Assembly (NCBI GenBank): GCA_040753675.1
Contig: JBFMEB010000009.1
Location: forward strand, 3,407 to 67,406
Length of the DNA stretch: 64,000 nt
From: Candidatus Omnitrophota bacterium
GTDB lineage: Bacteria > Omnitrophota > Gorgyraeia > JAHJTE01
Reading direction: 5' to 3'
Shown: positions 51,551 through 64,000 of the stretch, in pieces
Layout of the letters: every line of letters begins with the position of its first letter
Numbering within the stretch: the stretch's first letter is position 1
Program-made: the position numbers and the translations under genes
The notes under the pieces: model-generated
What the model was told of the DNA's origin: nothing
Seen by the model: only the letters and a program-made list of their open reading frames with translations
Database searches by the model: none

Positions 51551-51612
51551 ATGATTACATCTGTGTTTATCTGTCGCATTTGAATCTGTGTTCATCTGTG
51601 GGAGAACTTAGT
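51551..51612. repeat. Word-repeat array: (c/t)atctgt(g/c) x4 at about 10-nt spacing
   Basis: catctgtg, tatctgtc, aatctgtg, catctgtg between the giant-ORF stop and the PilZ-ROK start. Confidence 0.6.
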
Positions 51613-51614
51613 TA

Positions 51615-52925
51615 ATGTATAGTAACTCAATGATTAACAACGAGAAAAGAAAGTTCCAGCGCATAAGCGAGACGCTGCCGGTGCGGTTTAGATTCTCGGA
51701 TAGGCAGGGCTCTGTCTGGTATGATGCAAAGACCCAAAATATCTCTGAGGGTGGTTTGTTTGTTACCAATAATTTGAGCTTAGATGAGATTGGCGATGTT
51801 GTGCATGTTGATTTGAATATTGATAATAGCTTATTGCGAATTATATGTCAGGTTGCTTGGGTAAAGAGAGAAAATGATATAGCAGCTGGCTTTGGTTTAA
51901 AAATAATCCAAATAGAGCAAAAACATAGGCAAATTTTCCTTACCTATATATATAGCAGAGTCAAGCCAAAGAGAATGCCCTGCAAGATAAAATTCTTAAG
52001 GCAGCCCATATCTAAACTGCCAGATAAAGAGCGCAGGTGTTTCCAAATCTTAGATTATATTCGTAGATTTGGTCCGGTTTCAAAGGCAGATATCTGTAAA
52101 GAAATAGATTTAAATGCTGTTAGCGTTGGCAAGTTTATTGAAGACTTTTTAAGATTAGGAATAGTATTTGACTGCGGCCTTGATTTATCCAGCGGCGGCC
52201 GCAGAGCCCAGCTATTTAGAATTAATAAAGATTTTGGGTTTATTTTAGGCATAGATGTTGATAGAGATAGCGGAAATCTCTATGCTTTAGTTGCTAATAT
52301 GGATTTAGAAATCATTATGGAAGAAACAAAACCCTTTGGGAAACAGGATGATATAAAAAATATTTTAATTAATTTCATCAATGCAATTAAATTTAAGATA
52401 GCTAATAATGGCAATAATATCTTAGGAATTGGAATCGGCCTTGGTGAATCGCACACTGACCATAGATTAGCAGATTATTTATCAGAAGCTGTTGGCCTAC
52501 CTGTTATTATTGAGGAGGGTTTTCACTTAGAGTCTTTTGCGCAGAGTTGGATTACCAGGGCATTGTCGAATAAGAATATACTTTACATACATTCCAAACA
52601 TCACTTAAGTTTAATCTTGCAAGGTGATATCTATAAACCTGAGAGAGAAATTGAGAATAAAGTTGAATTAACTCCAATAGATTTGCAGGATAAGGTATTG
52701 GCTTTATTAGAGTTGCTAGGTCCAGATATAGTTTATATTTCAAAGAAAGCTGAGAAAGAGTCCCCTCTTTTGAAACAGGCGCTTACGGAACGCTTGAAGA
52801 GAACTGATATTAGCGAAACTCAGGGTATTAAAGTGCTTAGCTCAGACGTTGACGAGAAAAATGCTATAGCTCTCGGGGCTATAAGCCTGGTGATGAAGGA
52901 GATATTTGTGGCAATCTGCGGATAG
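51615..52925 (+). CDS. PilZ-domain / ROK (NagC/XylR)-family regulator-like fusion protein
   Basis: N-terminus RKFQRISETLPV ... TQNISEGGLFV carries the PilZ RxxxR + DxSxxG motifs. A wHTH (ILDYIRRFGPVSKADICKEIDLNAVSVGKFIEDFLRLGIV) and a ROK-like sugar-kinase fold (ILGIDVD...) follow. The ROK Cys zinc motif is not evident. GGGAGA RBS lies 11 nt upstream of the ATG. Confidence 0.6.
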   Translation: MYSNSMINNEKRKFQRISETLPVRFRFSDRQGSVWYDAKTQNISEGGLFVTNNLSLDEIGDVVHVDLNIDNSLLRIICQVAWVKRENDIAAGFGLKIIQIEQKHRQIFLTYIYSRVKPKRMPCKIKFLRQPISKLPDKERRCFQILDYIRRFGPVSKADICKEIDLNAVSVGKFIEDFLRLGIVFDCGLDLSSGGRRAQLFRINKDFGFILGIDVDRDSGNLYALVANMDLEIIMEETKPFGKQDDIKNILINFINAIKFKIANNGNNILGIGIGLGESHTDHRLADYLSEAVGLPVIIEEGFHLESFAQSWITRALSNKNILYIHSKHHLSLILQGDIYKPEREIENKVELTPIDLQDKVLALLELLGPDIVYISKKAEKESPLLKQALTERLKRTDISETQGIKVLSSDVDEKNAIALGAISLVMKEIFVAICG

Positions 52926-52975
52926 GGCACAGATGATCGCTGATAATTGAACAGATGATCACAGATTGATACATA
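52926..52975. repeat. Word-repeat array, inverted orientation of the same word (cacagatgatc)
   Basis: cacagatgatcgctga...aacagatgatcacagattgat. Together with 51551-51612 it brackets the PilZ-ROK gene as inverted arrays. Confidence 0.55.
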
Positions 52976-52994
52976 GAACGAATTCTTGTATAAT
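52966..52994 (+). promoter_or_regulatory. Sigma70-like promoter for the PilZ gene pair
   Basis: -35 TTGATA (52966-71), 17-nt spacer, TG-extended -10 TGTATAAT (52987-94). About 40 nt upstream of the RBS/ATG at 53034. Confidence 0.4.
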
Positions 52995-53033
52995 GATATT
53001 TAAGATTTAACCTACGATAGCGGGGGATGGATC

Positions 53034-53414
53034 ATGGAAGATAAAAGAAGACATAGCCGTTGGCAGTTGGCAAGTAATCTTTTAGTAAGAGAATCTGGCA
53101 CAGATAGCGAAGGATTCCAGGCAAAAACGAACGATATTAGTATTGGGGGATTATGTTTTCTTTCTCCCAGGATGATTGTCCATCAGACAGAATTAGATTT
53201 TGTTATTGATTTTCCAGATGAGAAAAATTCCATCTTTGCCAAAGGCAAAGTGGTTTGGGAGAAAGAGAAGATCTTGGACGACCAACAACGGGTTATTATG
53301 ACAGGGGTTAGTTTTGATATCCTTCGCGATGCTGATAAGGAAAGAATTTTTAATTATGCCTATAAATTTTGCCGAGAGGATTTGGCAAAAAAATGGTGGC
53401 AGGGGGTGAAATAA
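53034..53414 (+). CDS. PilZ-domain protein (c-di-GMP receptor-like)
   Basis: KRRHSRWQLA and TNDISIGGLCF motifs. GGGGGA RBS. A good sigma70-like promoter lies upstream. Confidence 0.65.
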   Translation: MEDKRRHSRWQLASNLLVRESGTDSEGFQAKTNDISIGGLCFLSPRMIVHQTELDFVIDFPDEKNSIFAKGKVVWEKEKILDDQQRVIMTGVSFDILRDADKERIFNYAYKFCREDLAKKWWQGVK

Positions 53415-53415
53415 A

Positions 53416-53745
53416 ATGCAAGACGAGCGGCGCTTATTTGAGCGGTTGTCAACAAAGTTACCTGCAGTAGTCAGGGCACAGACTGATGGTTCGGTATTCG
53501 AGGCACAAATCCAGGATTTGGCAGCTAAAGGGCTTGGTATAACCAGCAGAGACAGGATTCCTCAAGAAGGCCGGGTGAATTTGAGAATAGAAATTCCTGG
53601 CCAGAAAAATTACCTCAATCTTGTCGGCCAGATTGTCTGGTCAAGAGAGAATTTTCCTGACGGCTGGCGAGCAGGAATTTGGCTAAGGGAACAGTCAACT
53701 GATTTGGTTAGTTTTTCGGTGCTTTTAGATAAGGCTAACCGCTAA
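53416..53745 (+). CDS. PilZ-domain protein
   Basis: ERRLFERLS and IQDLAAKGLGI motifs. The start sits 1 nt after the preceding stop, suggesting translational coupling. Confidence 0.6.
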   Translation: MQDERRLFERLSTKLPAVVRAQTDGSVFEAQIQDLAAKGLGITSRDRIPQEGRVNLRIEIPGQKNYLNLVGQIVWSRENFPDGWRAGIWLREQSTDLVSFSVLLDKANR

Positions 53746-53749
53746 AACG

Positions 53750-53800
53750 CAAAATCACTAATCGCAAAAACGCAAAATTATTATCTTTGCGGTTGCAAAA
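53750..53800. repeat. Word-repeat array (acgcaaaat / ttgcgg, direct + inverted)
   Basis: aacgcaaaatcactaatcgcaaaaacgcaaaattattatctttgcggttgcaaaag. Confidence 0.45.
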
Positions 53801-53804
53801 GTGC

Positions 53805-53833
53805 TTGACCCGCCTAAAGATTTATGGTAAATT
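53805..53833 (+). promoter_or_regulatory. Candidate promoter upstream of the GH94 gene
   Basis: -35 TTGACC (53805-10), 17-nt spacer, TGgTAAATT extended -10. Confidence 0.3.
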
Positions 53834-53892
53834 TTTTCTTTGCATCTCGTAATAGATAATCAATCTTAAAAGAAAATACCAAAATATTTTAA

Positions 53893-53935
53893 ATTATTTA
53901 TCAGTGATCATCTGTTCAGTTATCTGTGATCATCT
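53893..53935. repeat. Word-repeat array (atcatctgt x2) upstream of GH94
   Basis: tcagtgatcatctgttcagttatctgtgatcatctgtg. Confidence 0.5.
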
Positions 53936-53965
53936 GTGCTAAAAAGAAAGGAGCAAGTTAAAAAT

Positions 53966-56407
53966 ATGAAGTACGGCCACTTTAGTAAAGACAACACAGA
54001 GTTTATCATCACTGACCCGCTAACACCCCGTCCCTGGATTAATTATTTGACTAACGAAGAATATGGTTCAGTTATTTCTCACTGCGCCGGCGGATATAGT
54101 TTTTTTAAAGACTGCCGCTCTGACAGAGTCCTACGCTGGCTTCCGGAAAATTGGCAAACAGACAGGCCAGGGCGATATATTTATGTTAAGCAGAAAGCAG
54201 AAAGCAGAAAGCAGAAAGCAAAAGTTTGGTCCTTGACTTACCAGCCGGTGAGAGAAAAATTAGATTTTTATGAAGCAAGGCATGGATTAGGTTATACACA
54301 AATCAAAACAAAATATAACGGGACTTCTTCCGATATTACTTATTTTGTCCCTGTCCATGACCATTGTGAAATCTGGTTAGTAAATATCAAAAACGAAACT
54401 AAGCAAACCAAACATTTAGAACTCTTTCCTTATTGCGAATGGCTTTTAGGAGATTATCATTTGGAACTACGCTATCGCAATATTCTGAATTTATATAATC
54501 GTGTCTGGTTTGATAAGCAGCACTCTGCGATTTTTGCCAAAAAGACGGCTAGTTGGGGAGATATGGACATCCAGCCATTTGCCTATCTGGCATTTTTTGC
54601 TTCATCATTAAAAGTAGACGGCTATGTAACTCAAAAATATCCTTTCTTAGGCAGGCATAATACCTGTGAACGTCCGCAAATGATATTCGAAGATAATTTT
54701 AAAAATATTGATTTCTGTTCCGGAGAAGATGCAATAGGTTGCTTTAGGCATAAACTCACTTTAGCCCCCGGAAAAAATAAAGAATTTGTAATCATCTTAG
54801 GTCAGACCGAGGGCCAAACCACTGTTTCAAAATTGCTTACTAAATACCGCAATTTAAAAAATTCAAAGAAGGAATTAGCAGCGGTAAAATCCTTGTGGCG
54901 GATGAGGATTTTAGATAATATCTGGATACAGACTGCGGATAAAGACTTTGATTTTATGATGAATATCTGGGTTAAGTATCAGCTTTATATTTGTAATTTA
55001 TGGAGCCGCTCGCCGAGTTACTACCATGAAGGTAGTGGAGGAAGAGGCTACCGGGATTCTTGCCAGGATTCAGAAAGCCTTTGTTCGATAAATAGCGAGT
55101 TTACCCGTAAGCGCATATTGCATATTGCCTCTTTAATCCGCAAAGACGGCACTTCTGCTCCGGGTTGGGGCGATACTACTGGGCCGGCAGGCCATAGGCC
55201 GAATAAAGACCATCAGATTTGGCTTACCGCAACAGTGCATGCCTACATTAGGGAGACAGGCGATAAATCTATACTTAGCGAATATGTGCCATATTTGAAA
55301 GATAGATGGATTGGCGGATGGGAAGTAGATGTAAATTATAAAGGCGGGGCTACCACCGACGGAGAAGGAACGCTTTTAGAGCACTTAGAAAAGAATTTAA
55401 ATTTCTGCTTTAATGACGTTGGCGAGAGGGGTTTTCCCTTAATTGGCCATGCGGATTGGAATGATGCTATTGATGCAGCAGGCAAAGAGCACAAAGGCGA
55501 TAGCGTCTGGTTGGCGCAGGCTTTGGTAAGAAGTTTGCGGCTTTTTGCCGACATCTGCGAGCTTATCGGTGAGAAAGGCAAAAAAGAAGAGTTCTTGCAT
55601 AAAGCAAAGACAATGAGCGAGCGGATAAACGATGTTGGCTGGGACGGTGCCTGGTATAAGCGGGGCTTTACTGATGATGGCACAGTTTACGGCAGTAAAG
55701 TAAATAATGAAGGAAAAATTTTTATCAATACCCAGGCCTGGGCGCTTTTATCCGGGGTGAGCGATGACGGCGGTAAAACCAAACAGGTTGTTGATTCGAC
55801 AATGAAATATTTAGACGGCAAGCACGGTTTTGCTTTATTCTACCCCGCCTACAGTAAATTTAATCCTAAACTCGGACGTATCAGTATGTTTTCCGAAGGC
55901 ACAAAAGAAAATGCAGCAGTGTTTTGCCACGCTGCAACATTTATGATTGTTGCATTATTATCAGAAGGCTTTGGAAATATTGGCTATCAGTCAATGCGAA
56001 AACTTATGCCAAATTTACAGCAAGATTATGAATTATATAAGACTGAGCCATATGTCTGGTCTGAATATATTGTGGGGCCCCAGCATCCTTACCTATATGG
56101 AGAAGGAGCGTTTACCTGGATTACTGGCACAGCTGGATGGACTTTTATGGCAGCAACTGAGTGGCTGTTAGGCGCGCGCAGAGATTTTGATGGCTTAAGA
56201 ATAGACCCTTGTATTCCCAGTCACTGGAAACATTGCCGTATTAGAAGGCCTTTTCGAGGAGCAATATACGATATTGAGATTGAGAATCCAAGAGGAAAAC
56301 AAAAAGGCGTAAGCGCTGTTTATGTTAACGGCGAGTTGATAGACGGGAATTTAATAAAACCAGGACAAGCTGGAAAGACTTATAAAGTTAGAGTGGTGAT
56401 GGGATGA
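53966..56407 (+). CDS. GH94 glycoside phosphorylase (cellobiose/cellodextrin/beta-1,2-glucan phosphorylase-like)
   Basis: N-terminus KYGHFSKDNTEFIITDPLTPRPWINYL is typical of GH94. GHADWNDAIDAAG carries the catalytic DWND motif. About 810 aa. The ATG at 53966 has an AAAGGAG RBS; the track's GTG at 53936 is an alternative start. An in-frame heptamer tandem lies at 54191-54218. Confidence 0.75.
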   Translation: MKYGHFSKDNTEFIITDPLTPRPWINYLTNEEYGSVISHCAGGYSFFKDCRSDRVLRWLPENWQTDRPGRYIYVKQKAESRKQKAKVWSLTYQPVREKLDFYEARHGLGYTQIKTKYNGTSSDITYFVPVHDHCEIWLVNIKNETKQTKHLELFPYCEWLLGDYHLELRYRNILNLYNRVWFDKQHSAIFAKKTASWGDMDIQPFAYLAFFASSLKVDGYVTQKYPFLGRHNTCERPQMIFEDNFKNIDFCSGEDAIGCFRHKLTLAPGKNKEFVIILGQTEGQTTVSKLLTKYRNLKNSKKELAAVKSLWRMRILDNIWIQTADKDFDFMMNIWVKYQLYICNLWSRSPSYYHEGSGGRGYRDSCQDSESLCSINSEFTRKRILHIASLIRKDGTSAPGWGDTTGPAGHRPNKDHQIWLTATVHAYIRETGDKSILSEYVPYLKDRWIGGWEVDVNYKGGATTDGEGTLLEHLEKNLNFCFNDVGERGFPLIGHADWNDAIDAAGKEHKGDSVWLAQALVRSLRLFADICELIGEKGKKEEFLHKAKTMSERINDVGWDGAWYKRGFTDDGTVYGSKVNNEGKIFINTQAWALLSGVSDDGGKTKQVVDSTMKYLDGKHGFALFYPAYSKFNPKLGRISMFSEGTKENAAVFCHAATFMIVALLSEGFGNIGYQSMRKLMPNLQQDYELYKTEPYVWSEYIVGPQHPYLYGEGAFTWITGTAGWTFMAATEWLLGARRDFDGLRIDPCIPSHWKHCRIRRPFRGAIYDIEIENPRGKQKGVSAVYVNGELIDGNLIKPGQAGKTYKVRVVMG

Positions 56408-56914
56408 CCTTATAGAACTTATCTATAATTAAACCCTAAATTCAAAACTCTAAACTCTAAATAAACTCAAATGTCCAAAACCCCAAATTCAAAACCATAT
56501 GATTTAGGAGCCAGGACCCTTAAATTTGCTAAAAGAGTAAGGGATTATGTAAAAGCTTTACCAAAGACATTGGCTAACATAGAAGATGCTAAGCAGCTTA
56601 TTAAAGCTTCTGGTTCAGTTGGTGCCAATTATATAGAAGCTGAAGAGGCTTTGAGTAAAAAAGATTTTATAATGAGAATAAAAATTTCAAGAAAAGAGGC
56701 AAAAGAAAGCAGATACTGGTTAGAATTAACCGAGCACAGAGAAGATCAGAAGAGTGAGCAGGAGGCTTTAATTAATGAAGCGGTAGAATTAACAAAAATT
56801 TTTGGTTCAATAGTTGAACGATCCAAATAATTCTTTTGAGTTTTAGATTTTGCGTTTTGTATTTGTTTAGGATTTAGGTTTAGGATTTAGAGTTTATATT
56901 TAAAAAGAATAGAT
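56408..56914. mobile_element. Inverted-repeat-bounded cassette carrying the four-helix-bundle gene (IVS/MITE-like)
   Basis: The left arm 56415-56470 (aaaccctaaattcaaaactctaaactctaaat...) is nearly the reverse complement of the right arm 56845-56900 (...atttaggtttaggatttagagttta). A miniature ORF-less copy lies at 60297-60480. Confidence 0.5.
56471..56830 (+). CDS. Four-helix-bundle protein (23S rRNA intervening-sequence protein family, TIGR02436/PF05635-like)
   Basis: DLGARTLKFAKRVRDYVKALPKT ... GSVGANYIEAEEALSKKDFIMRIKISRKEAKESRYWLELT matches the family pattern (..IGANIAEG...S.KDF..KL.IA.KEA.ET.YWL.L). Flanked by long inverted repeats. Confidence 0.7.
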   Translation: MSKTPNSKPYDLGARTLKFAKRVRDYVKALPKTLANIEDAKQLIKASGSVGANYIEAEEALSKKDFIMRIKISRKEAKESRYWLELTEHREDQKSEQEALINEAVELTKIFGSIVERSK

Positions 56915-58210
56915 ATGAAGAGATTGTCTACATTGTTTATTATTGTTTGTTTTTCATTGAGTCTTATTGGCTGTGTTGCAGAAGATAGTGCTTCAGCCAA
57001 AAAAACCATAACCGTTTGGCATTGGATGACTGACCGGGAGGCGGCCTTTCAAGAATTAGCTAAACGCTACGAAGATGATACCGGCATAAAGGTTAATTTT
57101 GAACTCTATGCCCCTTCTGATATCTATAGCCAAAAGGTGCGCGCTGCTGCTCAAGGGATAACCTTGCCAGATATATATGGGCTTCTGGGCGAAAAGAGAG
57201 ATTTTGCCGCATTTATAAAAAGTGGCCACGTAGCAGATTTAAGTGAGCCAATGTTTGAGGAAAATGGCGCTTGGAAAGAAAGTTTCTTTTCTAAAGCTCT
57301 CGAGGTGGTGGAATTCAAGGAGAATAATGCCTATGGCATAAAGCCAGGCATCTATGGTGCTCCCATTGATATAATGAACATCCAGATGCTTTACAATAAA
57401 AAATTATTTAAAAGGGGAGGCCTTGACCCAGAGAGGCCACCCTTAAACTGGAAGGAATTTATTGAGGATATCGAAAGCCTAAAAAAAGTGGGCGCGCCGG
57501 GTTTGGTTTCAGGGTGGGGAGAGATTTGGATGATTGATTGCTTTGCCTCCAATTATGCATTTAATATTATGGGGGAAGATAAGGTTATCGCTACTTTAAA
57601 AGGAGAGGTACCTTATACGGATCCGGATTGGATTAAGGTCTTTTCATTATTTAAAGAACTGGCAGATAAAGATGCCTTAGCATCCGGCGTTGTGATAATG
57701 AAAAACAAAGTCGCTGAGCAGACTTTTGCTAATGAAAGAGCGGCATTTGCATTTAATGGTTCATGGTGTATTAATGTTTATGAGGGGATGAATCCTAATT
57801 TAGAGTATGCTCCATTTTTACCGCCAAAAGTAAATATGAAAAAACCTATGTATATTTGGGGAGGAGGCTCTTCATTCTCATTTCTGGTAAATGATAGATC
57901 TACTAAGAAATTAGAGGCAATAAAGTTTTTAAAGTGGTTAACCGATAAAGACCAACAGGCATATTTATCGAATGAAACTAAGAACTTACCTTCCAACAAA
58001 TTTGCGCTTGCCCAAATACCTAAGATTTTGGCTCAGTTTGCAGCGGGTATGGATAACACTACTCATCCTAGCATTTGGCCAGTGAGTGAGTCTTCGATTG
58101 TGATTGAGGCAATGGGTAAAGGCATTCAGTCAATATTGATTGGAGAAAAGACTCCTCAAGAGTTAGGAGAAGAATTGCAGGCTTTAAAAGAGAAAGAGTT
58201 ATTTAAGTAG
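56915..58210 (+). CDS. ABC transporter extracellular sugar-binding lipoprotein (family 1 SBP)
   Basis: Signal peptide with lipobox LIGC. The body is SBP-like (TITVWHWMTDREAAFQELAKRYEDDTGIKVNFE...). Confidence 0.7.
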   Translation: MKRLSTLFIIVCFSLSLIGCVAEDSASAKKTITVWHWMTDREAAFQELAKRYEDDTGIKVNFELYAPSDIYSQKVRAAAQGITLPDIYGLLGEKRDFAAFIKSGHVADLSEPMFEENGAWKESFFSKALEVVEFKENNAYGIKPGIYGAPIDIMNIQMLYNKKLFKRGGLDPERPPLNWKEFIEDIESLKKVGAPGLVSGWGEIWMIDCFASNYAFNIMGEDKVIATLKGEVPYTDPDWIKVFSLFKELADKDALASGVVIMKNKVAEQTFANERAAFAFNGSWCINVYEGMNPNLEYAPFLPPKVNMKKPMYIWGGGSSFSFLVNDRSTKKLEAIKFLKWLTDKDQQAYLSNETKNLPSNKFALAQIPKILAQFAAGMDNTTHPSIWPVSESSIVIEAMGKGIQSILIGEKTPQELGEELQALKEKELFK

Positions 58211-58227
58211 TTTCTAGTTAGTTCTGA

Positions 58228-58345
58228 AAAAATATTTTTTAACGCAGATATACGCAAATCTAACGCAGATTTTCGCAGATTTCTCTACTAAATATCTGCG
58301 ACCATTTGCGTTACATCGGCGAGAATCTGCGTTCAAGAAAAGGTT
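58228..58345. repeat. Imperfect palindromic word array (cgcagat x4 then atctgcg / tttgcgtta)
   Basis: taacgcagatatacgcaaatctaacgcagattttcgcagatttc ... atatctgcgaccatttgcgttacatcggcgagaatctgcgtt, between the SBP gene and the first permease. Confidence 0.55.
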
Positions 58346-58373
58346 TTTTAGAAATCTCTTCTAAATTAGACGC

Positions 58374-59405
58374 TTGATGATATTTAAAAATATCTATGTA
58401 AAATCAATCATAGTTACCTCCTGTATCATTTTAGCAGAATTAATTTATCAAAAATTCCACAACCTCAGATTCATATCTCCTCTGTTAATATTATTGGCAG
58501 TCTTGATTTCTATTATCCTCGTCATTAAAATTATTTCAGCAAGACAATTCAAAAGTTTTCTTTTTATAGTTCCTGCCTTAGCAATTTTTTCAATATTTTA
58601 TATTTATCCTTTTATAAAAGTTTTACAACTGGCTCACTACAGCTGGGATGGAATATTACCTACAATGAAATTCGTGGCCTTTTATAACTTTTTAGAGGTC
58701 TTAAAAGATAAAGTCTGGTGGCAGTCGATGTTCAACGCCGGTTACATTACCTTTATCGCATTGACCTTCCAGAATGCCCTGGCTTTGATTTTGGCATTAG
58801 CCTGCGATAGGCAAATGAAGGCAGGGAATTTCTACCGCGTTATATTTTTTATACCTCCGGTATTGTCAGAGGTCGTGGTGGGTCTGGTATGGCAGTGGCT
58901 GTACAACGCAGATTACGGTCTGTTAAACCACTGGCTTTACACAATAGGTTTCCCTAATCTTGCCAGGTCTTGGCTGTCTGATCCAAAGACCGCTCTTACC
59001 TGCGTGGCTATCGTGCATTCCTGGAAAGGTTTTGGCTGGGGATTTGTAATTCTCTTGGCTGGATTACAAACTATACCCCGCCAGCTTTATGAAGCTGCAC
59101 GTGTTGACGGAGCGAATACTTGGCAGGTATTTAAAAATATTACCGCGCCTTTGATGATACCCGTATTCGTGCTGGTGGCGATACTGACAGTGCTAGGTTC
59201 TATGCAGTCGTTTGTTTTAATACTTACTATGACAGACGGCGGGCCGGCATTTCATACCGAGGTGCCGGTAACCAGAATTCTAACTTCTATGATCGGCTCT
59301 TCTAGATTTGGGTATGCTTGTTCACAGAGTATAGTATTCGGTGCAATCCTCCTTGCGATTTCCTTTATACAGAAGAGGCTCTCCCAAAATATGAGGCAGG
59401 CATAA
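58374..59405 (+). CDS. Carbohydrate ABC transporter permease (MalF/UgpA-like)
   Basis: Six TM helices. EAA loop YEAARVDGANTWQVFKNITAPLM. Confidence 0.7.
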   Translation: MMIFKNIYVKSIIVTSCIILAELIYQKFHNLRFISPLLILLAVLISIILVIKIISARQFKSFLFIVPALAIFSIFYIYPFIKVLQLAHYSWDGILPTMKFVAFYNFLEVLKDKVWWQSMFNAGYITFIALTFQNALALILALACDRQMKAGNFYRVIFFIPPVLSEVVVGLVWQWLYNADYGLLNHWLYTIGFPNLARSWLSDPKTALTCVAIVHSWKGFGWGFVILLAGLQTIPRQLYEAARVDGANTWQVFKNITAPLMIPVFVLVAILTVLGSMQSFVLILTMTDGGPAFHTEVPVTRILTSMIGSSRFGYACSQSIVFGAILLAISFIQKRLSQNMRQA

Positions 59406-60244
59406 TGCTTAATTTTAGCGTAAAGAAAACAACTACAAACATCCTAGTTCATCTTTTATTGATTTCAGTGTCGATTACCTGTCTTTTCCCGCTATTGTGG
59501 ATGTTTGGTTCTTCTTTAAAGACTCAAGGCACGGTTTTTTCTGACTTGAGCATAATTCCTCAACATCCGCATTTCGAGAATTATATAAAAGCCTGGACTG
59601 ACGGGGGTTTCGGCAGGTATTTCTTTAATAGTTTAATATACACCATCGCTGTAGTGTTAGGTATAGTTTTGGTATCGTCGCTGGCCGCATTTGCGTTTTC
59701 GCGATTGGAATTTCCTGGAAGAAACGCATTTTTTATCATGTTTCTTGCCGCGATGATGATACCGCTGCCGGGCAGTTTTGTTCCTTTATATGTGCTTATG
59801 GTGAAACTTCATTTGGTCAATACGCGCTTAGGCTATTGTTTATGCCTTATTAACGTGGGGCTGTCTTTTAGCATATTTTTGCTTAAGACGTATTTTGATA
59901 AGATGCCTAAAGAGTTAGAGGATGCCGCGAGAATTGACGGTTGCAACAGATTGGGAATTTATAGACACGTGGCTCTGCCCTTTGCCAGGCCGGCTCTTGC
60001 AGTGGTAGTGGTTTTTAACGCCCTGAATGTTTGGAACGAATATGTGCTGGCTTTGATAATATTTAGTAGTAAAGACCTGATGCCTCTTCAACGTGGGTTG
60101 ATGATGTTTCGGGGAGAATTCCTGACTAATTACCCACTTTTGATGGCAGGGCTTACTATAGCGGCCTTACCTATAATTATCTTATACCTGTTGATGCAGA
60201 AGTATATTGTCAAGGGAGCAACTTCTCAGGTGGTATTTCCATAA
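59405..60244 (+). CDS. Carbohydrate ABC transporter permease (MalG/UgpE-like)
   Basis: The start ATG overlaps the upstream stop (TAATG). EAA loop LEDAARIDGCNRLGIYRHVALPFARPAL. The track start at 59318 is an upstream in-frame extension overlapping the previous gene. Confidence 0.7.
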   Translation: MLNFSVKKTTTNILVHLLLISVSITCLFPLLWMFGSSLKTQGTVFSDLSIIPQHPHFENYIKAWTDGGFGRYFFNSLIYTIAVVLGIVLVSSLAAFAFSRLEFPGRNAFFIMFLAAMMIPLPGSFVPLYVLMVKLHLVNTRLGYCLCLINVGLSFSIFLLKTYFDKMPKELEDAARIDGCNRLGIYRHVALPFARPALAVVVVFNALNVWNEYVLALIIFSSKDLMPLQRGLMMFRGEFLTNYPLLMAGLTIAALPIIILYLLMQKYIVKGATSQVVFP

Positions 60245-60296
60245 TGCCTTATCAAATAAATAAGGGTTTAATTCAAAAATTAAAGTGCAAAAATCT

Positions 60297-60480
60297 ATTA
60301 CATAAATTTATATAAACTCTAAACACTAAATTCTAAATCCTAAATAAATCCAAAATTCAAAACATAAAACTCAAAACCTCATTTGACCTCTCAGGCATAA
60401 AATGTCTTCATACGCTTTTGGATTTTAGGTTTTGGACATTTGAGTTTGTTTAGAGTTTAGGGTTTCGGATTTAGGGTTTC
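60297..60480. repeat. Miniature ORF-less inverted copy of the four-helix-bundle cassette (both IR arms + 5' gene remnant)
   Basis: 60297-60350 matches the reverse complement of the cassette's right arm. 60425-60480 matches the reverse complement of its left arm. The middle retains the reverse complement of tcaaATGtccaaaacc, i.e. the MSKT start of the gene, then a stop. Confidence 0.55.
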
Positions 60481-60589
60481 TAATTTTTACATTTTACATT
60501 GTCATTTTGATATTTAATTTTTGATATTTGCATTTATAAACCAAATGCAATTGTCATTTAGTTGACAAGGCACCATAAGAAAGGTATTT

Positions 60590-60622
60590 AATCTTGCTTA
60601 CGCCAAGATTAATTGTTATAAT
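60590..60622 (+). promoter_or_regulatory. Candidate promoter + palindromic operator upstream of the MFS gene
   Basis: -35 TTGCTT (60594-99), 17-nt spacer, extended -10 TGtTATAAT (60614-22). The palindrome aatcttgcttacgccaagatt (60590-60610) overlaps the -35. A second TTGACA lies at 60562. Confidence 0.35.
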
Positions 60623-60664
60623 TACCATATTTATCACTAATTCAATTACAAGAATGGAGATCAA

Positions 60665-62191
60665 ATGACGACACACCATGTCACCGCCCCCCAAGACCGC
60701 ATTCCTTTTTTTCAGAAATTCATATACAGTATAGGAGCATTTGCGAATACTGCCCAGGCAGCTTTTATCGGACAGATGGTCATTGTTTTAAACCTGGGGT
60801 TAGGCGTAAATCCCGCCTTAGTGGGTTTAGTCGGAGCCCTACCCCGTATTATTGACGCCATATCTGATCCTATAACTGGATACTTTTCTGATAATCTACG
60901 GACCCGTTGGGGACGCCGAAGGCCGCTTATATTCTTTGGCGCTGTTACCGGCGGAATTACTTACGCATTGATGTATCAGCTCTATAAGGGCCATAGCGAA
61001 GGTTTCTATGTCTGGTATTTCGGAATATTCCAGGCCCTTTATTTTATTGGGTTTACCTGTTTTTCCATTCCCTGGATAGCGCTGGGATACGAAATGACCC
61101 CTGATTATCATGAGCGCACACGCTTGCAGGGGGCTAGTAATTTTGTTGGCCAATTACCCTGGCTTATCGCTCCTTGGTGCTGGGCCATTATGCACAACCA
61201 GAACTGGTTCCCAGATATAGTTTACGGCGGAAGAGTTCTTGCTATCATTATCGGCAGTGTTATCATCGGTTGTGGTATCCTTCCTGCTATTTTTAATAAA
61301 GAATACTTCCACACCTTACCAAAACCTGATGTTAGGGGCGCTTGGAGCGTGACGAAAGACTTCTTTGCTGGGGGTTTCGTAACTCTTAAATGTAGGCCAT
61401 TCTTGAAGCTGTGCCTATTTACCTTACTGATCTTTGGCGGATTCATGTGCGCTTCAGCTTTTACCATCTACGTTGTTTTCTTCTATGTCTTTGGAAATGC
61501 TCCAGTGCTTGATCAAGCCTATGCAAACGGCGGTCGCCTGCTCGGTATCTATGGGACTTTTTCTGCTATTTGTACTATGGGAGTCATTTATTTAACCACA
61601 TGGCTATCTAGAAGGCTCGGCAAGAGAAATACATTTTTTATAACTCTGCCTCTTTCAATCATCGGTTACGCTTTGAAGTGGATTGGTTATAATCCTGCGC
61701 ATCCGTACTTACTTTTGGTCGCCGCTCCGTTCATCTCATTCGGTCTGGGATCACTTTTCACATTAGTCAGCTCCATGGTAGCTGATGTATGTGACCTTGA
61801 TGAACTTACTACCGAAACACGCAGAGAAGGCATGTTTGGTGCTATTTACTGGTGGATGGTAAAATTAGGAGTCGCGCTTTCATCGTTTATCTCCGGAATT
61901 CTACTGAATGCAACTGGTTTCAAAGTTACATTAGGGCTTGCTCAAACAACGCAAACATTATTAAATTTGCGGCTGTGCGATATCGGTATCCCGATTGTGA
62001 CCACTTTAATCGCCATTTTTGTTATTATGACTTTTGATATCACAGAAGCTAAAGCCTGTGAAATCCGTGTCCATGTAGAGCGCAGAAGAGGAGAAAGACG
62101 AGTAGAAGAAGAAAGACGCAGAGAAGAAAGACGAGTAGAAGAAGAAAGACGAGTAGAAGAAGAAAGACGAGAAGAAGAAAGACGGGAGTGA
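60665..62191 (+). CDS. MFS transporter, glycoside-pentoside-hexuronide (GPH):cation symporter family
   Basis: GYFSDNLRTRWGRRRPLIFFGAV is the GPH DRT..RWGRRRP signature. 12 TM helices. GGAGA RBS. The C-terminal ERRVEEERR low-complexity tail is encoded by an 18-nt tandem repeat at about 62090-62188, so the functional C-terminus is uncertain. Confidence 0.7.
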   Translation: MTTHHVTAPQDRIPFFQKFIYSIGAFANTAQAAFIGQMVIVLNLGLGVNPALVGLVGALPRIIDAISDPITGYFSDNLRTRWGRRRPLIFFGAVTGGITYALMYQLYKGHSEGFYVWYFGIFQALYFIGFTCFSIPWIALGYEMTPDYHERTRLQGASNFVGQLPWLIAPWCWAIMHNQNWFPDIVYGGRVLAIIIGSVIIGCGILPAIFNKEYFHTLPKPDVRGAWSVTKDFFAGGFVTLKCRPFLKLCLFTLLIFGGFMCASAFTIYVVFFYVFGNAPVLDQAYANGGRLLGIYGTFSAICTMGVIYLTTWLSRRLGKRNTFFITLPLSIIGYALKWIGYNPAHPYLLLVAAPFISFGLGSLFTLVSSMVADVCDLDELTTETRREGMFGAIYWWMVKLGVALSSFISGILLNATGFKVTLGLAQTTQTLLNLRLCDIGIPIVTTLIAIFVIMTFDITEAKACEIRVHVERRRGERRVEEERRREERRVEEERRVEEERREEERRE

Positions 62192-62198
62192 TAGTAGG

Positions 62199-64000
62199 AT
62201 GAAAATTCGTAGATACTCGATACTCGATACTCGATACTCGATAATTTATTTGCTAACGTTTTTTTTGCTAGCATCTAGCATCTGGCATCTAGCATCGAGC
62301 CATGCAGAAGTTCTTCCATCCACTGAATACGTGCGAAATGCCTGGGATGCGTCAAGTAAAAAGGACCTTGAGTCGTTGGAAAAGATCGTGAACACCTGTA
62401 TTGAAAACTATTCGGAAGAAGCATTAGAGCAGCAAGCCAGTTTGCATGCCCTTGCTACGAAAGATAAGGCACAAGATTATCCAGCTCTAAATGATGTAGC
62501 AACATGCTATTTTATTCGCGGCGAGGCAAATTTTAAAGCCGGCAAGTTAAAAGAAGCAAAAGTCGACCTTAAAGAAGTAATTGATAATTATCATTATGCT
62601 CAAGCTTGGGATCCGCGGGGTTGGTTCTGGTCAGTAGCCGAGAAGAGTCAAGCGATTCTTGATAAAATTAAAGTGATGGAAGAAGGAGAACTTACCCCTG
62701 GAAATTTAGAGACAAGACCACTTGAAAGACCCGCAACAAAATTGACACTTTATGATTCTGGAAAAGAATCAGTCGTAAATTATGAAAAATACGGAAAGTT
62801 TATTGGCAGGGGCAGCAAAGATTATAAATATGAAATTACTGACCAGGAAGGCCTGGTCCAGGCAGTGGGAGAAGGCATTTATCCGAATACTACGAGCGTG
62901 CGCTGGGATCCTAATTTCAGGAAGGCGATGAAGGCAGGCAGATTAGAAGGCAGTCATTGGGATTTTGTGTACACTCCTGATTTAGAAGCAAACTTTTATA
63001 AATGGGCCACGGCCAGTGAACCCGAAGGAGTAAAACTTTTTTATATCGGGCTGGCTTTAGAGCGGGCTGGCTTCATCGAGCATGCCATAAAAGCCTATTA
63101 TGCCATTGTGGTACATTTTCCTGCGAGTTACGGCTGGACTTATTGGCAGACGCCTTGGTATGTAGGACCAGCAGCAATTGGCAAGATAAAGTATTTGACT
63201 TTCCGGTATCCGAAGTTGGGTATAAAACTTGAAGGGGCAAAGGTGAGGATAATTAATGCCTTTGATAAGAATATTAGTAATGACCTGGTTATTGCTGACC
63301 CTGGCAAATTGGTTAAAAAAACTATGTTAGATAAGGTTAGTCTAGCGCAGACTAGCGAGAAGATTAAGGTAAAGGTGGTAAAGAAAATCGGGGGGACACG
63401 GATAAAGCTCGTTCAGTTCGATAATCGCCATTGGCGGCTCTACGTAAACTCTAAACCCTATATAATTAAAGGTATATCCTATGCGCCTACAAAGGTGGGT
63501 CAGAGTCCGGATGACGGGTCGCTCTCCAACTGGATGGATTATGATTATAACCATAATGGTCTCTGCGACGGACCATTTGATTCCTTTATAGATAAAAATT
63601 TGAATAATAAACAGGATAAGGATGAATTTCCTATCGGAGATTTTCAGTTGATGAAGAATATGGGCGTTAATACCATTAGAGTTTATCATCAGCCTTTTAC
63701 CTTTACGAAGGCCAACAAAAAACTCTTAAGGAAACTTTACGATGATTTTGGAATTATGGTGATTATGGGCGATTTTTTAGGTAAATATGCCATTGGTTCA
63801 GGAGCGAGTTGGTACGAAGGCACGGACTATGAGAATCCCGAACATCAAAAGAATATGTTAGATTCAGTTATTAAGATGGTGAATGAATTTAAAGATGAGC
63901 CCTATATTCTGATGTGGTTATTGGGTAATGAAAATGTTTACGGAATTGCGTGTAACGCCGATAAAAAGCCGCAGGCCTTCTTCGCGTTTTGCGATAAAGT
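62199..64000 (+). CDS. Secreted glycoside hydrolase, clan GH-A TIM-barrel (GH5/GH2-like), 3'-partial
   Basis: Open frame from ATG 62199 to the window end; the track omits it for lack of a stop. N-terminus MKIRRYSILDTRYSIIYLLTFFLLASSIWHLASSHA|EV is a signal peptide with an AxA site. The C-terminal region GVNTIRVYHQPF ... ILMWLLGNENVYG carries the GH-A NE(P) acid/base motif. Confidence 0.55.
   Translation, partial: MKIRRYSILDTRYSIIYLLTFFLLASSIWHLASSHAEVLPSTEYVRNAWDASSKKDLESLEKIVNTCIENYSEEALEQQASLHALATKDKAQDYPALNDVATCYFIRGEANFKAGKLKEAKVDLKEVIDNYHYAQAWDPRGWFWSVAEKSQAILDKIKVMEEGELTPGNLETRPLERPATKLTLYDSGKESVVNYEKYGKFIGRGSKDYKYEITDQEGLVQAVGEGIYPNTTSVRWDPNFRKAMKAGRLEGSHWDFVYTPDLEANFYKWATASEPEGVKLFYIGLALERAGFIEHAIKAYYAIVVHFPASYGWTYWQTPWYVGPAAIGKIKYLTFRYPKLGIKLEGAKVRIINAFDKNISNDLVIADPGKLVKKTMLDKVSLAQTSEKIKVKVVKKIGGTRIKLVQFDNRHWRLYVNSKPYIIKGISYAPTKVGQSPDDGSLSNWMDYDYNHNGLCDGPFDSFIDKNLNNKQDKDEFPIGDFQLMKNMGVNTIRVYHQPFTFTKANKKLLRKLYDDFGIMVIMGDFLGKYAIGSGASWYEGTDYENPEHQKNMLDSVIKMVNEFKDEPYILMWLLGNENVYGIACNADKKPQAFFAFCDK
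62205..62300. repeat. Word arrays gatactc x4 and agcatctag x3-4 (overlap the 5' end of the secreted GH gene)
   Basis: gatactcgatactcgatactcgatactcg ... tagcatctagcatctggcatctagcatcgagc. They encode the signal peptide ...LLASSIWHLASSHA. Confidence 0.6.

Follow-up and report, generated by a model that had tools for sequence, protein, structure and literature searches.

Why are the gaps of a sugar-uptake locus filled with arrays of short repeated words? The locus occupies 51-64 kb of the window, the 64,000-nt stretch of a Candidatus Omnitrophota genome that was analysed. A first-pass annotation had described every intergenic gap here as an array of direct and inverted copies of a word of its own, phased at about 10-11 nt, and had suggested regulator half-sites or structured RNA elements. 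We compared the locus with four syntenic relatives (L001, L076, L077 and L078; 70-81% GH94 identity) that share the gene order PilZ-ROK/PilZ/GH94/ABC/MFS; the best relatives are 79-81% identical. The gaps of L076 and L077 were read, and the first three gaps of L078 were covered by pattern search only. Most gap arrays probably represent two families of small, selfish insertion elements that form palindromes, one of them of the intervening-sequence (IVS) type, rather than being conserved regulator-binding sites.

Words, gaps and promoters

The arrays are present at the positions first described, and they are indeed not CRISPRs. Enrichment was assessed in 1,122 nt of true gaps against the rest of the window, with both strands counted. 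ATCTGYG occurs 12 times where 0.39 are expected (Poisson P 2e-14), CGCAGAT 5 times (0.14 expected), CGCAAAA 4 times (0.21 expected) and TAAAYYC 14 times (1.5 expected). Enrichment over background therefore holds for every word except GATACTC and AGCATCT, of which there are 0 copies in true gaps because both lie in coding sequence. The supposed gap at 62205-62300 falls within an open reading frame (ORF) that begins at 62199, 7 nt past the MFS stop codon, and its array codes for a signal peptide. Nor do all gene junctions contain a gap: PilZ1 and PilZ2 abut with one base between them, and the two permease genes overlap. Compared with shuffles, 6-mer self-repeats are in clear excess in G1 (direct) and G6 (direct and inverted) and in modest excess only in G2-G5 and G7.

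The idea that each gap uses its own word gives way to two main families. CGCAGAT is the reverse complement of ATCTGCG, so five of the gap arrays are copies of one module, termed Family A here, and a TAAAYYC arm, that of Family B, is common to the gaps at 56.4, 56.85 and 60.3 kb. Phasing at 10-11 nt is confined to the ATCTGYG/CGCAGAT arrays; the Family B arms and the 62.2-kb arrays have period 7, and the CGCAAAA array has period 8/23. Three features of the gaps lie outside both families:

53735-53800, plus strand: CGCAAAA array, a 23-nt unit x1.9 with a short inverted TTTGCG
53805-53833, plus strand: promoter-like site upstream of GH94, TTGACC-17-TGgTAAATT, outside all repeat elements
60594-60622, plus strand: promoter-like site upstream of MFS, TTGCTT-17-TATAAT, outside all repeat elements

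The CGCAAAA array (fold z = -1.45) looks like a weak or decayed hairpin. It is missing from L001 and L077, and CGCAAAC/GCGGTTT heptamer hairpins are found in other Omnitrophota loci (L019, L032). The GH94 site is kept in L001 and L077 (TTGACC...TAAAGT/TACATT; consensus TTGACC-17-TGnTAAAKT), and L076 and L077 share the sequence block of the MFS site. What is conserved in the gaps is thus predicted promoters, not repeats.

The ATCTGYG module and the 58.2-kb palindrome

The Family A module is 37-42 nt long and consists of four ATCTGYG words at a spacing of 10/11-15/10. There are five modules in the window and one in L001:

51559-51600, plus strand: copy G1, four ATCTGTG/ATCTGTC words, spacing 10/15/10, with its end at the PilZ-ROK RBS
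52928-52966, minus strand: copy G2, inverted, spacing 10/12/10
53900-53938, plus strand: copy G3b, spacing 10/12/10, between the GH94 promoter and RBS
58221-58358, no strand assigned: palindrome of 138 nt, two modules head to head, 13-nt loop and 54-nt arms

The two modules of the palindrome have their words at 58243-58280 (minus strand) and 58294-58331 (plus strand), both with spacing 10/11/10. The outer steps are constant in all five copies, which are mutually alignable. The 3' end of G2 overlaps the -35 of a promoter-like site, TTGATA-17-TATAAT (52966-52994).

These positions lend themselves to a reading of the modules as operator arrays for a regulator of the sugar locus, either the adjacent PilZ-wHTH-ROK protein or a reader of helical-turn direct repeats, with the 58.2-kb palindrome as a double operator that may have been spread as a miniature inverted-repeat transposable element (MITE). 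Each module presents four 7-nt words at 10-nt phasing. One module lies at the PilZ-ROK RBS, one overlaps a -35 hexamer, one separates the GH94 promoter from its RBS, and the palindromic pair stands between binding-protein and permease genes. The adjacent gene product resembles ROK repressors (PDB 5F7P, Lmo0178, 8e-15; weak NagC/Mlc matches), although to our knowledge ROK repressors bind palindromes, not direct repeats, which counts against the operator reading. The sole copy common to a relative is G1, whose counterpart lies upstream of PilZ-ROK in L001 (7492-7533; identity at 35/42 positions), even though the neighbouring proteins share just 62% identity. Taken singly, modules G1, G2 and G3b are no more stable when folded than their shuffles are (z -0.5 to -1.1), so they could still be bound by protein.

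The distribution among relatives argues against operators. Regulator and operon are shared by L076, L077 and L078, yet no ATCTGYG-type array was found in the gaps of L076 and L077, which were read, or in those of L078, where the first three gaps were covered by pattern search, and L001 has one copy only. G2 is missing from L001, L076 and L077, and the G3b position in L001 holds an unrelated hairpin, ccctgcctgccggcaggcagg. Moreover, the 58.2-kb copy is flanked by direct repeats, TTTCTAGTTA (58211-58220) and TTCTAAATTA (58359-58368), a target duplication of 9-10 bp, TTCTA(A/G)TTA, that is single-copy in L001 and L076. The empty site there reads TTTCTAATTA or CTTCTAATTA, with a junction of a few nt. 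As judged from these alignments, the 138-nt palindrome is an insertion relative to L001 and L076 with target-site duplication, and the head-to-head pair behaves like a MITE. With nearly all elements of both families missing from the four syntenic relatives, the elements are not conserved operators, and we regard the operator reading as unlikely. That G1 is kept in L001 and abuts the RBS also fits a protein-binding site.

As first described, inverted copies bracket genes. Over about 42 nt, G2 is 88% reverse-complementary to G3b, with which it forms a predicted RNA duplex of -65.4 kcal/mol (z -14.6); its duplex with G1 reaches -39.8 kcal/mol (z -5.0). The two copies (52928-52966/53900-53938) could then be recombination sites of an invertible segment of about 1 kb that carries two PilZ genes and the GH94 promoter and so encloses two promoter-like sites. 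To this we give hardly any credence: there is no recombinase gene within the 13 kb examined, the same module stands alone at 51.56 kb and is part of a tight palindrome at 58.2 kb, and relatives share the gene order without the repeats.

The proposed structured RNA elements survive for three gaps (58211-58360, the 60.3-kb gap and the cassette arms described below) and fall away for single ATCTGYG modules (z above -1.5). The palindrome folds at -52.3 kcal/mol (z -8.2; 58211-58360). An Rfam search of 51-64 kb gave no match to rRNA or to any other family of RNAs. Like the REP/BIME elements of enterobacteria, the modules are intergenic within operons and alternate in orientation, and one element lies between binding-protein and permease genes, as does the malE-malF REP of malEFG, a place where a stem could stabilise the upstream message. 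They differ from REPs in that one Family A module alone makes no palindrome, the sequences are unrelated and no RAYT gene was seen.

An IVS-type cassette and its ORF-less copy

Family B is represented by two copies:

56431-56900, plus strand: cassette, with left arm 56431-56496, ORF 56471-56830 and right arm 56834-56900
60296-60490, minus strand: ORF-deleted copy of ~195 nt in inverted orientation, 4 kb downstream of the cassette

The cassette arms are ~65 nt long, inverted and built of TAAAYYC heptamers, and they pair with each other across the ORF. Tandem Repeats Finder (TRF) reports period 7 at 56430-56461 and 56866-56890, and the heptamers of the 5' arm precede the start codon. The ORF encodes a four-helix bundle of the 23S rRNA-IVS protein family (PF05635, 3e-14; TIGR02436, 3e-20; PDB 2RLD, 2e-15). 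A protein search scored at least 8,000 homologues, the best 120 of which are 76-100% identical and many of them on very short contigs. The cassette lies between the GH94 and binding-protein genes, outside any rRNA gene, and is missing from this position in L001, L076, L077 and L078. It has no clear target duplication.

Similar arms flank homologous genes in other metagenome-assembled genomes (MAGs; L156, L157, L158, L162 and L041), one of which is labelled Thermodesulfobacteriota. The contexts are unrelated. Five cassette contexts were examined, and each places the cassette between same-strand genes. Across an alignment of the arms from these five loci and the window (two copies), pairwise identity is 0.69-0.93 for the arms, 0.82-0.93 at codon positions 1-2 and 0.45-0.64 at position 3. 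The arms thus match codon positions 1-2 in conservation. With dN/dS at 0.03-0.12 (dS saturated) for the ORF, the substitution pattern indicates that the ORF and the arms are both under purifying selection. From five cassettes, RNAalifold derives a consensus stem in which some 45 long-range pairs are conserved. Its table contains about 22 U.G cells against 5 C.A cells, an excess that favours pairing in the sense-strand RNA and that comes from five related sequences with arms of skewed base composition. Covariation is thin, most pairs being invariant with one double-sided change. Other subfamilies of the IVS protein (IVP) have other heptamer arms: TAGCATA (L108), TCAGGGT (L126/L127) and TAAGTAG (L036).

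The second copy lies in a gap of 420 nt with outer inverted repeats at 60273-60292 and 60505-60524. Its reverse complement matches the left arm of the cassette and the first ~12 codons of the ORF, AAATGTCCAAAACC among them, before skipping to the right arm. Duplexes between this copy and the arms of the cassette reach -84 and -64 kcal/mol, and the gap folds with z -5.2. The counterpart of this gap in L001 and L078 is ~25 nt only, about 340 nt being missing from syntenic relatives. Alignment thus shows this stretch of ~340 nt, like the cassette and the 138-nt palindrome, to be an insertion with respect to the syntenic relatives, and the stems of the elements, as modelled, are strong.

The nearest parallel to the cassette is the 23S rRNA intervening sequence of Coxiella and Leptospira (PMC4990558). 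In both, terminal inverted repeats form a stem whose loop carries an ORF of the same family (PF05635/TIGR02436), the 5' arm has tandem heptamers shortly ahead of the start codon, and the whole element measures about 430-490 nt. In the Coxiella IVS, an S23p ORF is combined with such a stem and with strain-variable GACAGAT heptamers, and RNase III cuts at the first repeat (PMC4990558). Family B differs in standing between protein-coding operon genes instead of in an rRNA gene, in arms that are much longer arrays and in an ORF under strong purifying selection, whereas the Coxiella ORF is reported as decaying. IVP genes wedged inside cas operons have been described (PMC3936711).

The two ORF-less elements resemble MITEs and other small palindromic insertions such as Correia elements. 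Both are short, the one at 58.2 kb with 138 nt and the one at 60.3 kb with about 195 nt, and both have terminal inverted repeats. The first has its 9-10-bp target duplication and an empty site elsewhere; the second derives by internal deletion from a longer element with an ORF. Unlike in MITEs, the product of this 'parent' is a four-helix bundle instead of a transposase, and the arms are internally periodic short-word arrays. No transposase or other mobility gene was seen in the stretch examined.

We propose that Family B is an element with its conserved ORF (S23p/IVP, Avd-like) in the loop of a ~65-bp TAAAYYC stem, and that it inserts sense-wise between co-directional genes and leaves ORF-less hairpin derivatives. 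In the operon transcript, the stems would then either be RNase III substrates or serve as 3'-end barriers. In this way the polycistronic mRNA would be divided where the element sits, which might make the insertion tolerable; at 58.2 kb, the binding protein could in addition be expressed independently of the permeases. Cleavage of the transcribed stems by RNase III is the likely mode of action by analogy with rRNA intervening sequences and with the Haemophilus influenzae hmw leader, whose heptamer repeat folds into a hairpin processed by RNase III (PMC12721329). There is no RNase III gene in the window.

Heptamer arrays in coding sequence and across the phylum

Further heptamer arrays lie within genes of the window:

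54188-54224, plus strand: AAGCAGA x5.4 array, in frame in GH94, adding 7 residues to a surface loop
62212-62300, plus strand: GATACTC x4.6 and CTAGCAT x4.7 arrays, in the part of the GH2/TPR gene that codes for its signal peptide
23973-24075, 27273-27360, 39148-39229 and 47001-47031: heptamer arrays in a giant ORF

The two arrays at 62212-62300 are reverse complements of each other with 2 mismatches, and the region folds at -36.3 kcal/mol in antisense versus -19.8 kcal/mol in sense. They encode the signal peptide MKIRRYSILDTRYSIIYLLTFFLLASSIWHLASSHA/EVLPS, and orthologues are alignable from EVLPS on. At the same site the orthologues have other heptamers: CATGGAC in L001, CTATCAG in L077 and GTTCGGA with CTTTCTG in L078. 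The GH94 loop is without an array in L001 and has a different one, ACACGAC x4, in L076; hence some heptamer arrays arise in place by slippage, not by insertion.

Could slippage account for all of them? The arrays would then be neutral products of polymerase slippage on 7-nt units wherever selection permits, with inverted copies made by template switching and with no elements at all. Long simple-sequence repeats were reportedly treated by Mrazek in 2007. Period-7 arrays are about three times commoner in Omnitrophota-type loci (13.2 per 100 kb) than in those of other phyla (4.1 per 100 kb), they rarely exceed 34 nt, and orthologous permissive sites such as the GH94 loop and the signal peptides have different words in each genome. 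Earlier papers describe an excess of heptamers and put forward slippage as a hypothesis (PMC4679880, PMC4692102). As a full account, slippage appears quite improbable: it does not explain ~65-nt cassette arms conserved at 0.7-0.9 across lineages and always found with the same ORF, an ORF-less copy that retains the first 12 codons of that ORF, the target duplication at the 58.2-kb element, or AAATCCG/TTTCGGA hairpins that recur in several genomes with common non-repeat sequence.

Arrays in the 5' signal region are present in 47% of GH2/TPR and 25% of binding-protein orthologues, compared with 0-2% for internal windows. This placement in secreted proteins, with a unit not divisible by three, as at 62212-62300, would suit contingency loci, in which gain or loss of a 7-nt unit shifts the frame of signal peptides or the promoter and leader geometry of gaps and so turns secreted and uptake proteins reversibly on and off. 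Heptamer number does vary among Coxiella strains and, phase-variably, in H. influenzae hmw (PMC4990558, PMC12721329). We nevertheless think such switching very unlikely as the explanation of the arrays, since tracts of 3-5 units predict low switching rates and the conserved cassette arms and ORF are left unexplained.

Omnitrophota-type genomes expand 7-nt units, and the arrays survive at sites that tolerate insertions, namely gaps, signal peptides and surface loops, with selfish elements probably making up most of those in the gaps of this locus. The arrays are akin to known heptamer repeats (cyanobacterial STRR, Beggiatoaceae TAACTGA and Xanthomonas/Nostoc GGGAATC; PMC4679880, PMC4692102) in their 7-nt unit, intergenic enrichment and occasional inverted pairs, and to the ATCTTTC leader of H. 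influenzae hmw (PMC12721329) in forming a hairpin. They differ from such repeats in having many words per genome, in their ties to an ORF-bearing cassette, in their concentration in signal-peptide coding regions and in inverted pairing as the rule: 20/79 neighbouring array pairs are reverse complements at <=1 mismatch (permutation mean 1.6, maximum 7). Thirty-three hairpins have no plus/minus folding asymmetry (14 vs 16).

The sugar locus and its intergenic words

A giant open reading frame (ORF) occupies most of the window, a piece of a Candidatus Omnitrophota genome, and is followed by the genes of a sugar locus.

Features of the window, all encoded on one strand (giant ORF to secreted gene)
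353–51550: giant ORF, 17,065 codons, same strand as the genes after it, 80% of the window
51615–52925: PilZ-wHTH-ROK repressor-like gene
53034–53745: two small PilZ genes
53966–56407: GH94 gene
56471–56830: four-helix-bundle gene, 119 codons
56915–58210: sugar-binding protein gene
58374–60244: two permease genes
60665–62191: MFS transporter gene
From 62199: secreted TPR/GH2-like gene

For GH94, 93 relatives reach ≥55% identity, and those with a taxonomic label are, with few exceptions, from Omnitrophota or from mis-binned 'Planctomycetes' MAGs. GH94 scans of genomes and metagenomes found no relative above 79–81% identity.

The first-pass annotation had described the gaps of this locus as short-word arrays phased at 10–11 nt, each gap with its own word, and had read them as regulator half-sites or structured RNA. 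The words are indeed enriched. The true gaps, 1,122 nt in all, contain 12 copies of ATCTGYG (0.39 expected) and 14 of TAAAYYC (1.5 expected), and with units of 7–10 nt and no spacers the arrays are, as had been supposed, not CRISPRs. The words are not private to single gaps, since CGCAGAT is the complement of ATCTGCG and one word is therefore common to several gaps. Arrays at 51.56, 52.93, 53.9 and 58.2 kb are five copies of one module, which we call Family A, and those at 56.4, 56.85 and 60.3 kb have one arm sequence in common. Phasing of 10–11 nt is exact in Family A only, the other arrays having periods of 7 or 8/23. Positions 62205–62300, taken for a gap, are instead coding: they lie in the signal-peptide region of the final gene, and orthologue alignments begin at the cleavage site.

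A role for the arrays as operators of the sugar locus is argued against by comparison with relatives, because the conservation in the gaps is that of promoters (TTGACC-17-TGnTAAAKT before GH94 and TTGCTT-17-TATAAT before the MFS gene) and not of arrays. Repeat-rich gaps in Omnitrophota should not be taken for regulons.

The PilZ-wHTH-ROK regulator carries an N-terminal PilZ domain fused to a wHTH-ROK repressor-like body (PDB 5F7P, 8e-15), and its gene is followed by the two stand-alone PilZ genes (51615–53745) in an order kept in the syntenic relatives L001, L076 and L077. This arrangement suggests c-di-GMP input into control of the locus. In L001 (8880–9085) and L077 (8800–8955) a hairpin-rich leader of ~160–210 nt, with the common motifs acaacttatg...cataagttgt and attaaattcgc, precedes the first PilZ gene; the window is without it. 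Rfam holds no match for this leader, and returned no family for window 51–64 kb (E-value threshold) or for L001 and L077 (gathering threshold). The MFS transporter ends in a tail coded by an 18/33-nt tandem repeat (62087–62188) and made of (E/R)-rich RRVEEE units, and similar C-terminal tails are found in L001, L077 and the further relative L078.

Inserted modules and cassettes

A Family A copy is a set of four words of 7 nt, ATCTGYG or variants of it, at spacings of 10, 11–15 and 10 nt. Single copies start at 51559 (G1, plus orientation), 52928 (G2, minus) and 53900 (G3b, plus), and a head-to-head pair (minus/plus, 58243/58294) forms a palindrome at 58.2 kb. G1, which precedes the PilZ-ROK gene, is the only copy common to a relative, L001 alone (35/42 positions identical). 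No Family A array was found in L076, L077 or L078 despite identical gene order, the first three gaps of L078 being covered by pattern search only. Given the position and conservation of G1, a binding role for Family A is possible.

The 58.2-kb palindrome is missing in L001 and L076, where a few nucleotides separate the stop of the binding-protein gene from the permease start. On its two sides stand TTTCTAGTTA and TTCTAAATTA, and L001 and L076 have a single TTTCTAATTA. Flanks and empty sites together constitute a classical insertion signature. The pair (58221–58358) has a predicted fold of −52.3 kcal/mol (z −8.2), and inverted single copies are strongly complementary (G2 × G3b duplex, −65 kcal/mol, z −14.6). 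Local hairpins were ruled out for G1, G2, G3b, the CGCAAAA array G3a and the sense-strand arrays at 62.2 kb, all with fold z above −1.5.

Family B is a cassette in which ~65-nt inverted arms with 7-nt periodicity, built of TAAAYYC heptamers, bracket the four-helix-bundle ORF. The ORF product belongs to IVP/S23p, the protein family of 23S rRNA intervening sequences (IVS), whose Pfam entry PF05635 resembles the DGR accessory protein Avd (PMC10053308). The arms can be aligned with those of homologous cassettes in L156, L158, L162 and the Thermodesulfobacteriota-labelled L157, and also with an ORF-less hairpin in L041. In five of five contexts the cassette lies in sense orientation between co-directional genes (rpoD/next gene; rmlB/rmlD; pilin-like genes/TPR gene; epimerase/radical-SAM gene; GH94/binding-protein gene). 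The ORF has a dN/dS of 0.03–0.12, with synonymous sites saturated. The non-coding arms are 0.69–0.93 identical, on a par with codon positions 1–2 (position 3, ~0.5), and are therefore functional parts of the cassette. RNAalifold finds ~45 conserved long-range pairs in the stem. By our own count from its table, U·G outnumbers C·A by ~22 to ~5 across only five related sequences, an excess that favours pairing of the stem in the transcript.

The best 120 of at least 8,000 IVP homologues are 76–100% identical, many of them on contigs <2 kb, as expected for a multi-copy element. With the window IVP as query, tblastn of the fetched loci returned the self-match only; an iterated HMM gave seven IVP genes in total. 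Exact-sequence look-ups gave no database record for the MFS or IVP protein of the window, or for the 100%-identical P0001. Other IVP subfamilies have arms of other heptamers (L108, L126/L127 and L036), and an ORF-less AAATCCG/TTTCGGA family recurs in several genomes. In L157 the TAAAYYC cassette has a second layer of flanking arms, AAATCCG / TTCGGATTT (2958–2976 / 3469–3495); AAATCCG is also the word of the ORF-less family in the Omnitrophota loci L046, L044 and L033.

The hairpin at 60296–60490 is a Family B element in reverse orientation, its ORF deleted after ~12 codons. Because it is an inverted, ORF-deleted copy, each of its arms forms a stronger duplex with the opposite arm of the cassette than the two cassette arms form with each other. 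Outer inverted repeats (60273–60292 / 60505–60524, 85% complementary) enclose this copy, which suggests that one palindromic element is nested in another.

Putative action of the stems in RNA

The sequences show that these elements are inserted, how they are built, how well they are conserved and how stable their stems are predicted to be; that the stems act in RNA we infer, with rRNA intervening sequences and the Haemophilus influenzae hmw leader as the nearest experimental precedents. The Coxiella IVS combines an S23p ORF and strain-variable GACAGAT heptamers with a stem of terminal repeats, and RNase III cuts it at the first repeat (PMC4990558). The hmw hairpin, likewise processed by RNase III, is formed by a heptamer array (PMC12721329). 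By analogy, stems in a polycistronic message would be cut or would serve as 3′ barriers, either of which would make insertion between genes tolerable. The 58.2-kb stem could uncouple binding-protein from permease expression.

Here the IVS-type ORF-in-a-stem unit is an operon-invading cassette, its ORF under strong purifying selection and its arms conserved across lineages, that has left ORF-less derivatives behind. No transposase was seen within the window. To our knowledge, no role has been assigned to the 23S rRNA IVS protein since 1993, nor do we know of an account of how IVS move. The many natural copies of the cassette offer material for questions of mobility, RNase III processing and protein–arm binding. 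Our literature search found nothing on Omnitrophota repeats or on repeat-flanked IVP genes outside rRNA.

Heptamer arrays and signal peptides

Omnitrophota-type loci carry 13.2 tandem arrays of period 7 in every 100 kb, against 4.1 elsewhere. One third lie in intergenic DNA, which is 6% of the total, and another third within the opening 150 nt of a gene, although relatives' genes are simple longest-ORF calls and some of these '5′ coding' arrays may sit in leaders. Among 79 pairs of neighbouring arrays, 20 are reverse-complementary with no more than one mismatch (permutation mean 1.6, maximum 7). A direct word followed by its inverted copy is thus a design that recurs, the word varying by place. 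Thirty-three array hairpins had no general sense-strand folding bias (14 vs 16). A fixed array length was ruled out, lengths being broad over 15–34 nt with a drop above 34 and no peak. An excess of heptamers in bacteria and the idea of polymerase slippage are already known (PMC4679880, PMC4692102).

Among GH2/TPR orthologues 47%, and among binding-protein orthologues 25%, have an array within the 180 nt that precede the mature N-terminus; the figure is 0–2% in internal windows and at GH94, MFS and permease gene starts. In L002 (N-terminus at 3520–3625), L077 (12448–12560) and L076 one hairpin codes almost the entire lipoprotein signal of the sugar-binding protein: the A-rich arm gives RNQKPVYRNQK or KNQKSKIKNQN, and the T-rich complementary arm gives LVTVLWLLVTGF or FWILIFGLWIF, after which comes the lipobox cysteine. 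The GATACTC/CTAGCAT pair of the window (62212–62300, GH2/TPR signal peptide) is a degenerate example. Read in the sense frame, an A-rich arm would yield the basic n-region and its T-rich complement the hydrophobic h-region, such that a gene whose 5′ end acquired a hairpin, by insertion or by local growth, could gain a signal peptide or exchange the one it had.

It is possible, if on balance rather unlikely, that the palindromic heptamer-array elements are at once ready-made secretion signals and members of a mobile family, akin to rRNA intervening sequences, that spans phyla and has no transposase. Arrays in signal regions may reflect tolerance, phase variation or a genuine source of signals. 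Omnitrophota are ultra-small, possibly host-dependent bacteria, and the hairpin-coded signals suggest an unusual route of turnover for their secretion signals. ORF starts near heptamer arrays call for caution in annotating their genomes.

Some arrays arise in place. A surface loop of GH94 holds AAGCAGA × 5.4 in the window (54188–54224) and ACACGAC × 4 in L076 (~10200–10240), and no array in L001. Bounded by RYIYVK and KVWSLTYQP, the loop is a hot spot of length variation in which the reading frame is always kept. In-frame heptamer-array patches also occur in the giant ORF (23973–24075, 27273–27360, 39148–39229 and 47001–47031). Six ATCNAGY-type arrays in the window, all coding and on the plus strand, specify (A/L)SSI(Q/W)H(L/P)-like hydrophobic stretches; a pattern search of the first 75 fetched loci (~1.2 Mb) gave none. 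Finally, L099 carries a nested hairpin (3687–3914) with long outer CACACGC / ACGTGTG arms and inner TTGCGTT / AACGCAA arrays, with predicted folds of −77 kcal/mol (plus strand) and −103 kcal/mol (minus strand).
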